A DNA stretch of 64,000 nt from Candidatus Wolfebacteria bacterium RIFCSPLOWO2_01_FULL_47_17b (GCA_001793865.1 MGIS01000023.1:60137-124136); one strand, 5' to 3'; counted from the stretch's first letter, positions 10,979 to 60,805 are shown. The notes: generated by a model from the letters alone, not told the origin. Translations and numbers: made by a program.

Positions 10979-11030
10979 GCATTTCCCCGCCCGAGGCGGG
11001 TGCGCCTAGGGCGCAGAGTACGGCGCGTTA
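10979..11030. repeat. 52-nt direct repeat copy 1 (50/52 identical to 11409-11460) containing two tandem 6-bp/3-nt hairpins
   Basis: gcatttccccgcccgaggcgggtgcgcctagggcgcagagt.cggcgcgtta. Confidence 0.8.
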
Positions 11031-11039
11031 CACACAGAG

Positions 11040-11126
11040 CGGAGATGGGAGGATTCGAACCTCCGGTACCGTTTCCGGTACACCATATTTCGAGTATGGC
11101 ACATTCGACCACTCTGTCACATCTCC
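11040..11126 (-). tRNA. tRNA-Ser (CGA) whose acceptor stem is extended by a 9-bp flanking inverted repeat (acacagagc / gctctgtgt)
   Basis: GGAGATGTGACAGAGTGGTCGAATGTGCCATACTCGAAATATGGTGTACCGGAAACGGTACCGGAGGTTCGAATCCTCCCATCTCCG; long variable arm. Confidence 0.8.
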
Positions 11127-11146
11127 GCTCTGTGTATAACCAATTC

Positions 11147-11404
11147 TTAATTATCTTCAATAAAAGATCGCGGTAGATAATTTCTTCTTTCCCTGCCTTT
11201 GCCCGTTTTTAGGAATTTCTCTTCACTCACAGCATCTTGCTTATTAATAAATGTCTCATAATACACAAGCTTCCACGGAACGCCCCTAGAAGTAAACGGG
11301 ACTTCTCCATTATTGTGTTTTCTTACTCTATTTTGCAAATCTTTAGAGAATCCTACATAAAACTTTTTTAACTTCCAGCTATATAAAATGTAGACGTAAT
11401 ACAT
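11147..11404 (-). CDS. Small GIY-YIG nuclease family protein (YhbQ-like)
   Basis: YYVYILYS...KFYVGFSKDLQNRVRKHNNG GIY-YIG motif; 85 aa. Confidence 0.75.
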   Translation of the reverse strand: MYYVYILYSWKLKKFYVGFSKDLQNRVRKHNNGEVPFTSRGVPWKLVYYETFINKQDAVSEEKFLKTGKGRERRNYLPRSFIEDN

Positions 11405-58000: not shown

Positions 58001-59352
58001 GGCACCCTCTCAAACGATCCGAATACTTGTATGACCTCTAGCATATATGCAAGTGCCGGCTGAACCGCCAGCGACGCGATAGAGCCGATTGTCACCGATA
58101 CTATGCCCACTATCCCTACACAAAACGAAATGCCCATCACTAGTGGCACGAGCGGAAGGATGAGCACGTTTGCCAATACCCCTACGGGGGAAAATCCGTC
58201 AAAAAGAAATACAAGCACCGGCATGACTGCCATCTGGGCCGCAAGCGTTTCCGCAAGTACCTTGCAGTGGGTTAATTTTACAAGTAGCGGCGCTATATAC
58301 ACGATCCCAAAAAGCGACAAGAATGAAAGCGTGAATCCGGCATCGTAGCGTATGGCATAGGGGCTTGCCACGAGCATCATGCATCCAACAGCAACCGCGC
58401 TTTGTCTGAAGTCATACACGCGCCCCAAATACTGCGAACTTATCATAAGCATCCCCATGATCGCCGCCCGCACGATGGAGGCTTCCGCGCCCGTCATCAG
58501 CGTGAACACGAGCAATATGATGATCGTCGCCCAGAATGTCGTATTCCTTTTCAAAAACATTCCCAGCAATCCGAACAGCCAGATGCTGATCATGGATATG
58601 TTGTAGCCCGAAAGCGCCACGATATGTGTCGTCCCGCTGTTTTGCATAGCTGTCTTCAGCTCCGGCGAGAAGGCGACCGATCCGCCTCCTATTAAAAGCC
58701 CCGTCGCCAGCGATGCCTGGTCATAGGACAATATTTTTACGAATGTATCGCGAATACTCGTCCGAACCTTGAAAAGAATGCGCATTGGTGAAGGATCTCC
58801 TTTTGTATACGTTATAACGCGAGGGCTTTTTACGATTCCTTGCACGAGGTCTTTTGTAAGGTATTGCTGCGTTTCGCCTAATGCTTCCGGAACCCCCGAA
58901 AGTACAAATCTATCGCCGTACTCCACTTCCTGTGAAAATGGCATATACACCTGCGCATTCCCATGCCGCGTGGATAGTATAAATCCTTTGCCAAACTCGG
59001 AAAGTCGTGGGTACGATCGTACGGTGCCTTCGATAGAGATCTCCGCTCCAAGCGGCAGTGGTTCGTACGTTCTATCCGCCCAGAAATGCGCATACACAAA
59101 ACCTAGTAGTACGCACACGCATCCGATGCCTACGCACACTGCATACGCGTGTTTTGAGACAAGGTATGTAAACAGCCCCATAAGAATTCCTAAGACAGAC
59201 ACGAGCACTACGAATACGAATACAACTTCATACACGCGCAATGCAATTCCGACTATAATCCCAAGACAAATGGTAAAAAGTATGTGTGATTTTAACAGCC
59301 TCATGTGGGTTATGGGTTTTGAGTTGTGTGTTTTGAGTTTCTCATTACTCAC
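57895..59352 (-). CDS. comEC: ComEC/Rec2 competence membrane channel domain protein
   Basis: DUF4131-like N-terminus plus polytopic competence domain. Confidence 0.7.
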   Translation of the reverse strand: MSNEKLKTHNSKPITHMRLLKSHILFTICLGIIVGIALRVYEVVFVFVVLVSVLGILMGLFTYLVSKHAYAVCVGIGCVCVLLGFVYAHFWADRTYEPLPLGAEISIEGTVRSYPRLSEFGKGFILSTRHGNAQVYMPFSQEVEYGDRFVLSGVPEALGETQQYLTKDLVQGIVKSPRVITYTKGDPSPMRILFKVRTSIRDTFVKILSYDQASLATGLLIGGGSVAFSPELKTAMQNSGTTHIVALSGYNISMISIWLFGLLGMFLKRNTTFWATIIILLVFTLMTGAEASIVRAAIMGMLMISSQYLGRVYDFRQSAVAVGCMMLVASPYAIRYDAGFTLSFLSLFGIVYIAPLLVKLTHCKVLAETLAAQMAVMPVLVFLFDGFSPVGVLANVLILPLVPLVMGISFCVGIVGIVSVTIGSIASLAVQPALAYMLEVIQVFGSFERVPWTKSILVTIVYYAACIGLAAYARKKKLWYEFSLS

Positions 59353-59481
59353 TACTCACAACTCATTACTCAATCAATAATCAAACCCCTTTTTTGCCGT
59401 GTCCTTGGGCGCGCACCATATGCGCGATGCATGCGCTTGTTTTCCCCGCTCCGTTTCCGGTAAAAATGACAACCATAGGTT

Positions 59482-59799
59482 TTATTTTTCTCCTTTTAGG
59501 ATAATTCGCTCTTCAAAGCCCCCGCGCTCTTCTTTTTTCTTCATTCGAACCTCCTCTACATTCTTGTATTCTGGAAGCATTTTAAGCGCCTCAATCACTT
59601 CAAGCACATCTGCCAGTTCGCTCGGATCACCCGCTTCGCCAAATTCTTGCATTTCTTCCTTCAGCTTTTTGACAAGCTCATCTTTGTACTCTCCCGGAGA
59701 CGCGATGCGCTTCTCGTAGGGAATTTTCTTCGCATCCAGTATTTCGGGAATCTTATCCCGTACAAGCTTATTATACTTTTCCATTTCCGATTCGCTCAA
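59482..59799 (-). CDS. MazG-like nucleoside triphosphate pyrophosphohydrolase
   Basis: KLVRDKIPEI...ELADVLEVI EExxE/D pattern, 105 aa. Confidence 0.55.
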   Translation of the reverse strand: MSESEMEKYNKLVRDKIPEILDAKKIPYEKRIASPGEYKDELVKKLKEEMQEFGEAGDPSELADVLEVIEALKMLPEYKNVEEVRMKKKEERGGFEERIILKGEK

Positions 59800-60805
59800 G
59801 GTGTTTTATAAGCGTCGTCACATAGCCGTACTCGTTATCGTACCATGCGAGTACTTTTACGAGATTTCCGTCTATTACTTTAGTAAATTTCGCGTCCACG
59901 ATGGACCCGTATGGCATACCGACGATGTCGGATGATACGATCTGATCCTCGGTATAGCCAAGTATGCCGCTCCACCGTTCCGATCCCGCCGCTTCTTTCA
60001 AAAGAGCATTTATTTCTTCAACGGACGTTTTTTTCTTTGCTATGAATGTAAGATCAACAAGCGATCCCGAAACTACAGGTACCCGTATCGCGATCCCGTC
60101 GAATTTTCCATCCAAATCGGGGAGCGCGCGGCTGACCGCTTTAGCGGCGCCCGTCGTTGAGGGCACAATATTTTGCGCGGCAGCGCGGCCGCGTCGATAG
60201 TCATCCCCTTTTACGGGTCCGTCCACAATACTTTGCGTAGCGGTATACGCGTGCACCGTGCTGAGCACCGCTTTTTCAATCCCAATTTTTTCACTAAGCA
60301 CTGCCATAACCGGTGACGCGGCGTTTGTTGTGCATGACGCATTGGATGTAATCTGGCACGTTGGAATTCTATCTTCGTTTATGCCTATTAAAACTGTTTT
60401 GCCTCCGCCAGCTGGCGGATCACCATCGGGATCTTTCGCGGGAGCGGTTAGAAGCACCCGTTTTGCCCCCGCGTCCAGATGGACTTGTGCCTTTTCGAAT
60501 GATTCAAATGCGCCCGTGGCCTCAACCACCACATCCACGCCAAGCGATCCCCATGGAAGCTTTGATGGGTCTTTTTCATTTAGAAACTGTATCTGCTTGC
60601 CATCCACAAAGAGCAGGCTTCTGTCCGCGTCTGCTTTCACCTCATGAACCCATGTTTTATATACGCTGTCGTACTTTAAGAGGTAGGCAAGGTTGGATAC
60701 ATCGCCAAGATCGTTTATAGCGACCACATCGATATTTTTATTATTATAGGCGGCTCTAAAAAAGAGGCGTCCGATACGGCCAAAACCATTTATTGCGATT
60801 TTCAT
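59771..60805 (-). CDS. gap: Glyceraldehyde-3-phosphate dehydrogenase; contains in-frame palindrome-encoded insertion DPDGDPPAGGG
   Basis: NGFGRIGR Rossmann, SNASCTTN catalytic Cys, 344 aa. Confidence 0.93.
   Translation of the reverse strand: MKIAINGFGRIGRLFFRAAYNNKNIDVVAINDLGDVSNLAYLLKYDSVYKTWVHEVKADADRSLLFVDGKQIQFLNEKDPSKLPWGSLGVDVVVEATGAFESFEKAQVHLDAGAKRVLLTAPAKDPDGDPPAGGGKTVLIGINEDRIPTCQITSNASCTTNAASPVMAVLSEKIGIEKAVLSTVHAYTATQSIVDGPVKGDDYRRGRAAAQNIVPSTTGAAKAVSRALPDLDGKFDGIAIRVPVVSGSLVDLTFIAKKKTSVEEINALLKEAAGSERWSGILGYTEDQIVSSDIVGMPYGSIVDAKFTKVIDGNLVKVLAWYDNEYGYVTTLIKHLERIGNGKV
60403..60418. repeat. 16-bp palindrome TCCGCCAGCTGGCGGA inside gap coding sequence
   Basis: Exact match; reads DPPAGGG in frame. 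Confidence 0.85.

Follow-up and report, generated by a model that had tools for sequence, protein, structure and literature searches.

Why would a gene-dense bacterial genome carry one and the same 16-bp palindrome in the leader of its 16S rRNA gene, in the spacers of its operons and, in frame, inside two of its protein genes? This question is raised by 64,000 nucleotides of Candidatus Wolfebacteria bacterium RIFCSPLOWO2_01_FULL_47_17b (GCA_001793865.1, MGIS01000023.1:60137-124136), a 64-kb stretch that is called the window throughout, in which the perfect palindrome TCCGCCAGCTGGCGGA, hereafter P, occurs in six exact copies (Table 1). The answer that we favour, with a probability of roughly 60%, is that P is an ultra-small, non-coding, GC-rich palindromic insertion module, behaving like the repetitive extragenic palindromes (REPs), the Rickettsia palindromic elements (RPEs) and the GC clusters of yeast mitochondria. 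Its contexts make it clear that P lands, or is kept, where a stable hairpin is tolerated, that is, at the tips of hairpins, in operon spacers, in leaders and in predicted surface loops of proteins.

What exactly is repeated? Not one of 100 dinucleotide-preserving shuffles of the window contains a copy of P, against the six real ones, which agrees with the initial annotation that had called this number far beyond chance. The gene assignments made there (leuS, gap, mreC, mreD, rseP, frr and 16S) also hold, as do five of its copy positions, the last one (given as 60403) being off by a single nucleotide. When up to three mismatches are allowed, two further sites appear where 0.23 would be expected by chance, one of them in the 16S rRNA gene; the other had been described as a half-site at 48526 and is in fact a stretch matching P at 13 of 16 positions, beginning at 48528 and possibly fortuitous. 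Outside P, the 8-mer half (TCCGCCAG/CTGGCGGA) is found alone three times versus about 1.7 expected, and because it is not enriched by itself the repeated unit is the whole palindrome. Similarly, since the adjoining flanks, which differ from copy to copy, are no more complementary in register than chance would have it, P forms a unit of its own instead of the centre of some longer conserved palindrome. All six of its reading frames are free of stop codons. Four of the six exact copies are intergenic, two lie in genes (leuS and gap) and none forms a dimer, and the density is about 6 copies per approximately 73 kb once the 9.3 kb upstream of the start of the window, which are free of P, are included. 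Avoidance of PvuII-type restriction was considered and rejected, CAGCTG not being depleted in the window (19 sites versus about 13 expected). The GAPDH and LeuRS of the window recur with identical sequences, as OGM91209.1 and OGM91254.1, in Candidatus Wolfebacteria bacterium RIFCSPHIGHO2_01_FULL_48_22, and their best homologues belong to Paceibacteria/Patescibacteria.

The coming and going of P can be followed in gap, where it is translated as D-PPAGG, PPAGG being residues 130-134. The clade-wide state, in 27 GAPDH homologues, is APAKDxDG(D/E)-x-GKT, with one variable residue where the window has D-PPAGG-GKT, so that the window shows a net gain of 12 nt (five residues where relatives have one); relatives without the palindrome thus lack these residues, which upholds the proposal that the stretch was inserted. 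Two of the relatives have decayed copies of the same length at this codon and four have no insert (examples in Table 1). In one of the decayed copies (L202) all seven differences from P are GC-to-AT transitions, a pattern that looks like what mutational decay of P would be expected to leave in a 39%-GC genome. On a neighbour-joining tree of gap, insert-bearing and insert-free alleles interleave, which implies at least three gain or loss events at one codon, and repeated gain is favoured over precise loss because the insert-free alleles keep an ancestral Met that is present in an outgroup too. P has therefore been gained and/or lost repeatedly at a single gap codon among close relatives, and it decays where it is not renewed. 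Only part of what is unusual in this region is owed to P, however. The initial annotation had reported some nine residues without counterpart in canonical GAPDH, and about eight extra residues are indeed seen by comparison with solved structures, but only four of them (12 nt) derive from P, the D-x-D-G-D segment being common to the whole Paceibacteria clade.

In leuS, P encodes S-A-S-W-R-T (residues 234-239; QSASWRT spans 233-239), in a variable-length loop ahead of the conserved VFTTRPDT, where relatives have 2-6 other residues. The in-frame reading originally given for this site stands, and the copy is likely to be an insertion, given the variable loop and the other repeats inserted in this gene; the closest relative of a different strain is only 76% identical. 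Two more repeat families, a 40-nt palindrome and a 22-nt tandem repeat with further copies elsewhere in the window, lie in frame in the same gene and add nine and 12 residues, both absent from 21 homologues. Because leuS holds these two additional repeat-derived insertions, intergenic repeats invade coding loops as a general habit in this genome. As a separate observation, a 970-aa LeuRS homologue from Gracilibacteria (P0145) has a Pfam match to the Y1 transposase (PF01797) and several others match NUDIX (PF00293), which may represent further foreign insertions or fusions in the LeuRS of the candidate phyla radiation (CPR).

Between genes, P caps longer hairpins, the z-scores of which range from -2.3 to -3.6. 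Its copies in the mreC-mreD and frr-rseP spacers belong to a composite element, first noticed as an extended palindrome common to the two spacers and found here to consist of AATTTCGAAACTTCAGTCATTCA-P-(TCGCGGA)-TTGAATCGAAATT plus GAAATTA-type heptamers; as RNA, the mreC-mreD composite folds with P at the apex (-25.8 kcal/mol, z = -3.6). The copy in the 16S leader similarly forms the apex of a longer hairpin, GCCCCCAAUCUU-P-UGGGGAC. None of the P sites in the window was called in a terminator scan and none has a U-tract on the sense (minus) strand, so that a canonical intrinsic terminator was rejected for the window copies, although this trait does occur at other P loci (L084, L045). The intergenic copies of the window lie in spacers and leaders that are transcribed, where a secondary role as RNA hairpins is probable. 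Orthologous spacers offer no comparison here, because the nearest metagenome ProRS relatives are at most 60% identical and their spacers are not alignable.

Structured RNAs carry P as well. Measured against the Rfam SSU consensus, the copy in the 16S rRNA gene, which diverges in its loop, lengthens helix h10 by 12 nt, and against the 16S of a related Paceibacterium (L157) by 15 nt; it has two mismatches to P, both transitions, and since both fall in the 4-nt centre the stem is intact. In two Bacteroidota, the RNase P RNA gene carries P, twice in a member of the Cyclobacteriaceae (L073, 4274-4680) and once in a member of the Roseivirgaceae (L092, 480-873). At P sites, Rfam 15 matches only these host RNAs (the window 16S and RNase P RNA in L073 and L092), so the idea that P is itself a known RNA family was dropped. 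The 16S rRNA gene of the window is not followed by 23S or 5S genes and has protein-coding ORFs on either side.

How far does P extend beyond this genome? A scan of one genome per GTDB species finds it in at least 120 loci, with approximate taxon proportions. Most of the low-GC matches listed come from Patescibacteria (about 41 loci, many classes) and Bacteroidota (about 33), together with others from Cloacimonadota, Elusimicrobiota, Neomarinimicrobiota and gammaproteobacterial metagenome-assembled genomes (MAGs), and the P carriers listed include an isolate, Mucilaginibacter flavidus; some 8-kb stretches hold 2-4 copies. High-GC matches listed (e.g. Streptomyces) fall in ORFs, where they are mostly read as I-R-Q-L-A-E, and resemble the matches that coding sequence would give by chance. 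P is also found in 55 IMG/VR viral contigs, 16 of which have a GC content below 0.50, whereas two control palindromes of identical composition scanned in viral contigs give 91 loci with two below 0.50 (TCGCCCAGCTGGGCGA) and 10 loci with none (CTCCGCAGCTGCGGAG), that is, P is enriched at least 8-fold over the controls in low-GC viral DNA. By contrast, 808 kb of related Paceibacteria loci, picked via ProRS independently of P, hold no exact copy and only a few variants changed in the loop. The distribution is therefore patchy, since scattered genomes hold many copies and 808 kb of relatives none. The small palindromic element or maintained site, tolerated in frame and recalling RPEs, that was initially proposed is supported in kind; it is not specific to one lineage, the 16-mer being the same across phyla and in phage contigs. 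In the literature searched, no paper contained P or its 14-mer core, and only general papers on REPs, RPEs and mitochondrial palindromes surfaced.

The contexts of P in these other genomes are telling in two respects, where it sits and how it is translated. It occupies the loop of CGTC-type REP hairpins (L052, L024, L055, L065, L069, L207, L221), provides, between tracts of A and T, the GC core of terminators that work in both directions (L084, L045, L002) and lies in duplicated fragments of tRNA genes (L057, L062, L044). Among the matches listed, 41 of 106 low-GC genome sites are in ORFs of at least 150 aa, as are 18 of 22 low-GC viral sites, and the frame that yields PPAGG accounts for 31 of these 41 and 12 of these 18, far ahead of RQLA (six and six) and SASWR (four and none). 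A bias this strong means that P is translated, selection having favoured the peptide that is flexible and suits a loop, and that it is not spliced out or bypassed. Its hosts elsewhere include PNPase, CysRS, a Mur ligase, glutamate dehydrogenase, TsaD, RecJ and MetK, the last of which is exactly four residues longer than PDB 7r3b. Signatures of insertion are found next to P. Flanking direct repeats of 2 nt occur at 20 sites versus 9.6 by permutation (p = 0.001) and those of 3 nt at eight sites versus 3.2 (p about 0.02), both after de-duplication, and in three loci (L083, L114, L034) deletion of P together with one 3-nt repeat restores an unbroken array of heptamers. A target-site duplication of fixed length was considered and rejected, the signal being weak and variable and the apparent 10-nt duplications amounting to 3 nt within arrays with a 7-nt period.

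Which known elements does P resemble? The CGTC-tagged REP super-family is found in several phyla and has no dedicated transposase (Di Nocera et al., 2013, PMC3733652), and RPE-4 and RPE-6 have been equated with CGTC REPs (PMC3733652). REPs and P are alike in being small GC-rich palindromes between co-directional genes, some copies of which are intragenic. However, REPs measure 20-40 bp, have 8-9-bp stems and are species-specific, whereas P has 16 bp and a 6-bp stem and is identical across phyla. P is perfect, with a symmetric centre, and unlike REPs it has neither a GTAG/CGTC tag nor a CCA tail of its own (six window flanks), the tags seen elsewhere belonging to the outer REP in which P nests. 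REPs are, moreover, predominantly extragenic, high in copy number and often arranged as inverted dimers, whereas the 41 of 106 low-GC sites of P mentioned above lie in ORFs and a dimer is seen only in Mucilaginibacter (L055). RPEs are about 100-150 bp long, with long imperfect palindromic arms, and are known only from Rickettsia. P shares with them survival in frame in essential protein genes, presence in RNA genes, insertion (predicted in the case of P) in surface-exposed segments and lineage-specific gain and decay, the reading frame remaining intact in gap (+12 nt), in the leuS loop and in MetK (+4 aa); it differs in being 16 bp long, in adding 4-5 residues, in having a Wolfebacterium as host and in being common to unrelated phyla and phages.

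Further parallels can be drawn. The GC clusters of yeast mitochondria are organellar and species-specific and usually measure 30-50 bp, and they are not known to be shared across distant hosts. Like P, they are GC-rich palindromes that occur in AT-rich genomes, in spacers, rRNA genes and now and then a protein gene; they code for no enzyme, and the direct repeats on either side of them are very short. The HIP1 palindrome of cyanobacteria (GCGATCGC) is 8 bp long, occurs about once per kb and arises mostly by substitution without a change in length. It resembles P as a perfect palindrome of coding and non-coding DNA with a wide taxonomic range and no established mechanism, and P departs from it by its 16 bp, its density of about 1 per 10 kb here and its link to gains in length. 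DNA uptake sequences and uptake signal sequences (DUS/USS) are short motifs in coding and intergenic DNA, inverted pairs of which form hairpins downstream of genes, and their hosts carry competence and type IV pilus genes, as does the window. An uptake function was nonetheless rejected for P, the half-site alone not being enriched (three versus about 1.7) and the density lying far below that of DUS/USS. As for a derivation from insertion sequences (ISs), there is no known parent IS for P, and 16 bp would seem too short to contain two functional terminal inverted repeats. In sum, P acts like REPs, RPEs and GC clusters and yet differs from each of them in size, tag or lineage range, and no gene for a REP-associated tyrosine transposase (RAYT) was found nearby among the ORFs scanned.

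If P is an insertion module, new copies would arise through a trans-acting process that recognises the perfect palindrome by its sequence, which would leave copies either perfect or visibly decaying and would make the 16-mer identical from phylum to phylum. Its patchiness would in that case stem from horizontal transfer, in part by phages, either of this activity or of DNA that carries P. Because the central AGCT is symmetric, recognition would concern duplex DNA or a self-annealed DNA hairpin, and not an RNA hairpin. Several observations weigh against P being such a module. Flanking repeats of 2 or 3 nt are present at only about one quarter of the sites, so that the signal for target-site duplication is weak. 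The net change in length varies, from +12 nt (gap, MetK) to +19 nt (repeat arrays) to the replacement of 3-8 nt (tRNA, REP), which is why neither a simple transposition with fixed duplication nor a single cut-and-paste mechanism would explain all sites. No RAYT/Y1 or other classical transposase was found among those of the window ORFs that were scanned. No filled/empty pair from near-identical strains was found, all other assemblies retrieved (L261-L265, L402, L403) being from the same strain (99.96-100% identity) and retaining every copy of P, and the age of the leuS copy has to be judged from distant relatives (at most 76% identity). The contrast between six perfect and one or two degenerate copies in the window, and the identity across phyla, would also fit purifying selection. 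Finally, the copy number comes from about 73 kb, and the taxon proportions are approximate.

Selection is at the heart of an explanation that we regard as unlikely, without dismissing it, according to which a dimeric protein binds P as duplex DNA. The site (parS-type, nucleoid, uptake or regulatory) would be maintained for this protein, forced by gene density into tolerant loops and helices and left to decay in relatives that have lost the protein. The perfection of the palindrome, central AGCT included, and the identity of the six window copies next to decayed orthologous gap copies in relatives are what such a site would show. Exact conservation across phyla would follow from a conserved DNA-binding specificity, for which parS is a precedent, and the bias towards PPAGG, the least disruptive peptide, fits selection for a DNA site under protein constraint. 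Yet a maintained site accords poorly with a distribution so patchy that 808 kb of related Paceibacteria hold no exact copy, with the three or more gains or losses that close relatives show at a single gap codon, and with direct repeats and interrupted heptamer arrays that resemble insertion scars. The nesting of P in repeats, pseudo-tRNA fragments and phage contigs would make little sense for a chromosomal organising site, and no candidate binding protein was found. That P instead serves chiefly as an RNA hairpin, be it a terminator core, a processing site or an mRNA stabiliser, recruited by or exchanged among AT-rich genomes with the coding copies as by-products, is improbable. It would account for the transcribed spacers and leaders of the window in which P caps hairpins, for the textbook bidirectional terminators of Bacteroidia and other MAGs (L084, L045, L002) and for the acceptance of P in RNase P RNA and 16S h10. 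However, no window copy has a sense-strand U-tract or was called as a terminator, no Rfam family matches P, an RNA hairpin has no need of a self-complementary loop and yet the AGCT centre is conserved, about 40% of the low-GC genome sites are in long ORFs with a strong frame bias, and it is implausible that many phyla arrived at one identical 16-mer independently, with no transfer between them.

Might there have been no insertion at all? Pre-existing similar sequences could have been converted to P by biased repair, gene conversion or template switching, as has been proposed for HIP1, the correction of quasi-palindromes by template switching being an established mutational mechanism; the 8 nt replaced by P in L057 (GCAACTGC) do resemble its centre, and the gap inserts of relatives are alike in length and partly in sequence. 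Such conversion is very improbable in our view, since insert-free gap alleles are 12 nt shorter and bear no similarity to P, MetK shows a clean gain of four residues, heptamer arrays are broken by P plus a 3-nt repeat, and intramolecular template switching cannot give one sequence in different phyla. It can hardly be credited, lastly, that P is a chance match or an artefact of assembly, sequencing or linkers, even though most matches are in MAGs, some contigs of the source strain break near P (L262 spans window positions 37743-33539 and ends about 35 and 53 nt from P) and high-GC matches, in the IRQLAE frame, resemble chance coding matches. P is absent from the shuffles, it occurs in independent assemblies of the strain and in the isolate Mucilaginibacter flavidus, the control palindromes are rare in low-GC DNA, and the in-frame and PPAGG biases and decayed orthologous copies are the work of biological filters.

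If P is, as we favour, an insertion module, which enzyme could mobilise it? The selfish genes among the scanned window ORFs comprise GIY-YIG, LAGLIDADG, HNH-repeat and 23S-IVP ORFs, an intein and a group I intron, and the GIY-YIG ORF is part of a split tRNA-Ser(CGA) gene in which it and an intact tRNA-Ser(CGA) lie inside an older gene. On the minus strand, the order is the old 5' part, a double hairpin, the GIY-YIG ORF, the intact tRNA, a 55-nt direct repeat and the old 3' part. It is within its anticodon that the older tRNA is broken, by 30 nt that form the double GC hairpin (TGCGCC-CTA-GGCGCA then CCCGCC-TCG-GGCGGG), and ARAGORN finds this tRNA-Ser only once cassette and hairpins are deleted. 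The locus looks like a homing-type cassette carrying its own replacement tRNA. Fragments of tRNA 5' parts that have P in the D-loop flank GIY-YIG ORFs of Wolfebacteria (L062) and Kaiserbacteria (L044), and in Mucilaginibacter (L055) a GIY-YIG ORF is 120 nt from a P-bearing REP, while a further adjacency (L029) is possibly due to chance. On the other hand, there are no hairpins near the GIY-YIG gene of an unbiased locus (L197), and the GIY-YIG proteins form no obviously transferred clade. A small GIY-YIG nuclease as the mobiliser of P is thus a weak lead, suggested by its proximity to P-bearing tRNA fragments elsewhere and to hairpins of a similar kind in the window. A bolder proposal, which we hold to be doubtful, is that P and a second perfect palindrome, Q (CCTGCCTGCCGGCAGGCAGG), make up a new class of mobile insertions, perfect palindromes of only 16-20 bp that move between phyla, partly on phages, and remodel proteins and RNAs. 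A nuclease acting in trans, with small free-standing GIY-YIG proteins as the candidates, would place them at DNA breaks or in hairpin loops, and they would routinely add PPAGG loops to essential proteins and remodel 16S h10, RNase P RNA and tRNA genes.

Should P prove to be an insertion module, it would be among the smallest insertion elements described, and unusually identical from Patescibacteria to Bacteroidota and phages. Minimal, gene-dense CPR genomes would continually gain hairpin modules that become loops in GAPDH, LeuRS, MetK, PNPase and TsaD, and extra helices in 16S rRNA and RNase P RNA. The consequences would concern (i) annotation and phylogenetics, through spurious lineage-specific indels and contig breaks at repeats, (ii) protein engineering, for which P sites would be naturally validated permissive loop positions and (iii) mobile-DNA research, to which a defined 16-bp substrate would give a handle for finding the enzyme that recognises it.

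Table 1. Copies of P, gap alleles and other features discussed; positions are counted from the first nucleotide of the window.
Feature	Position	Sequence, product or structure	Context
P in leuS (13130-15493, minus strand)	14779-14794	TCC GCC AGC TGG CGG A	in frame
P in 16S rRNA leader	27347-27362		between promoter-like site 27436-27408 (minus strand) and 16S processing stem
Composite, mreC-mreD spacer	32287-32364	AATTTCGAAACTTCAGTCATTCA, P (32310-32325), TTGAATCGAAATT, GAAATTA/GAAATTC heptamer repeats	mreC-mreD spacer
P in leader of ORF 33142-33486	33592-33607	TTCA (4-nt direct repeat) on both sides	strong promoter-like site upstream, 33713-33684 (minus strand)
Composite, frr-rseP spacer	37755-37839	P (37778-37793), 7-nt near-duplication TCGCGGA, TTGAATCGAAATT, heptamer repeats	frr-rseP spacer
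P in gap (59771-60805, minus strand)	60404-60419	GAT CCG CCA GCT GGC GGA	in frame
Loop-diverged P, TCCGCCGGTTGGCGGA (minus strand)	27033-27048	RNA UCCGCC-AACC-GGCGGA	extended helix h10 of 16S
Possible degenerate P, TCCGCCAGCTGCCGTT	48528-48543	13/16 matches; may be chance	inside ORF 48281-49321
gap site, window		GAT CCG CCA GCT GGC GGA GGC	P intact
gap site, L121 (86% aa identity)		GAT TCG CCG GAC GGA GGA GGA	same length, decayed
gap site, L202 (79%)		AAT TCA TCA ATT AAC GGA GGA	same length, decayed
gap site, L205 (87%)		GAT ATG GGA	no insert
gap site, L204 (81%)		GAG CTT GGG	no insert
40-nt palindrome in leuS	13463-13502	GAGGTTCAACCTC...GAGGTTGAACCTC; PRSGEVEPQ, +9 aa	other copies 253-292, 34315-34354
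22-nt tandem repeat in leuS	13627-13712	ATTCGCGGCATTCGCATTAT; NANAANENSSFP, +12 aa	other copies 15517-15580, just upstream of leuS
CGTC-REP-like hairpin	33543-33569	GTCATCCTGAGCGAAGCGAAGGATCTC	22 nt from the 33592 copy of P
16S rRNA gene (minus strand)	25672-27228		
16S processing stem, 23 nt	25587-25609 and 27294-27316		the two parts pair
Split tRNA-Ser(CGA) (minus strand)	10979-11480		older, interrupted gene
GIY-YIG ORF	11147-11404		inside split tRNA-Ser(CGA)
Intact tRNA-Ser(CGA)	11039-11126		inside split tRNA-Ser(CGA)
55-nt direct repeat	10979-11033 and 11409-11463		tRNA cassette
Group I intron (minus strand)	8464-8703	Rfam RF00028, 77 bits	
tRNA 5'-half-like sequence (plus strand)	about 8701-8725	CGCTCTACCACTGAGCTA	abuts group I intron
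Heptamer-array spacers	17113-17628, 20436-20467, 27969-28058, 43276-43317, 46248-46340, 32339-32364, 37814-37839		
Other selfish/insertion-type genes	1558-4794, 6097-6600, 20484-20855, 50463-50960		

Apart from P, the window is rich in repeats and insertion-type genes. Tandem repeats of 7 nt (CGTATAC, TTAGGGA/TTAGTGG, GAAATTA) fill many of its spacers, often as inverted arrays around a hairpin or a small ORF, and recall the short tandemly repeated repetitive (STRR) heptamers of cyanobacteria; similar arrays flank P in unrelated genomes (L083, L087, L104, L112, L114). An S23-like (23S-rRNA-IVP) ORF sits between inverted CGTATAC arrays. The window also contains a free-standing LAGLIDADG ORF, an ORF with a helix-turn-helix and a homing-endonuclease-associated repeat, and a GyrB intein, with a Pfam Intein_splicing match on the identical gene in L402. 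The group I intron, together with the tRNA 5'-half-like sequence that it abuts, may be an intron-containing tRNA gene missed by ARAGORN.

Q, for its part, is absent from the window. It recurs across phyla and in 35 viral contigs, with up to four copies per stretch, and is often near P (L016, L018, L019, L033, L038, L095, L096, L098; viral L367-L401). One copy (L018) comes directly after a tRNA 5' fragment, and another (L398) lies in the D-loop of a tRNA-like sequence.

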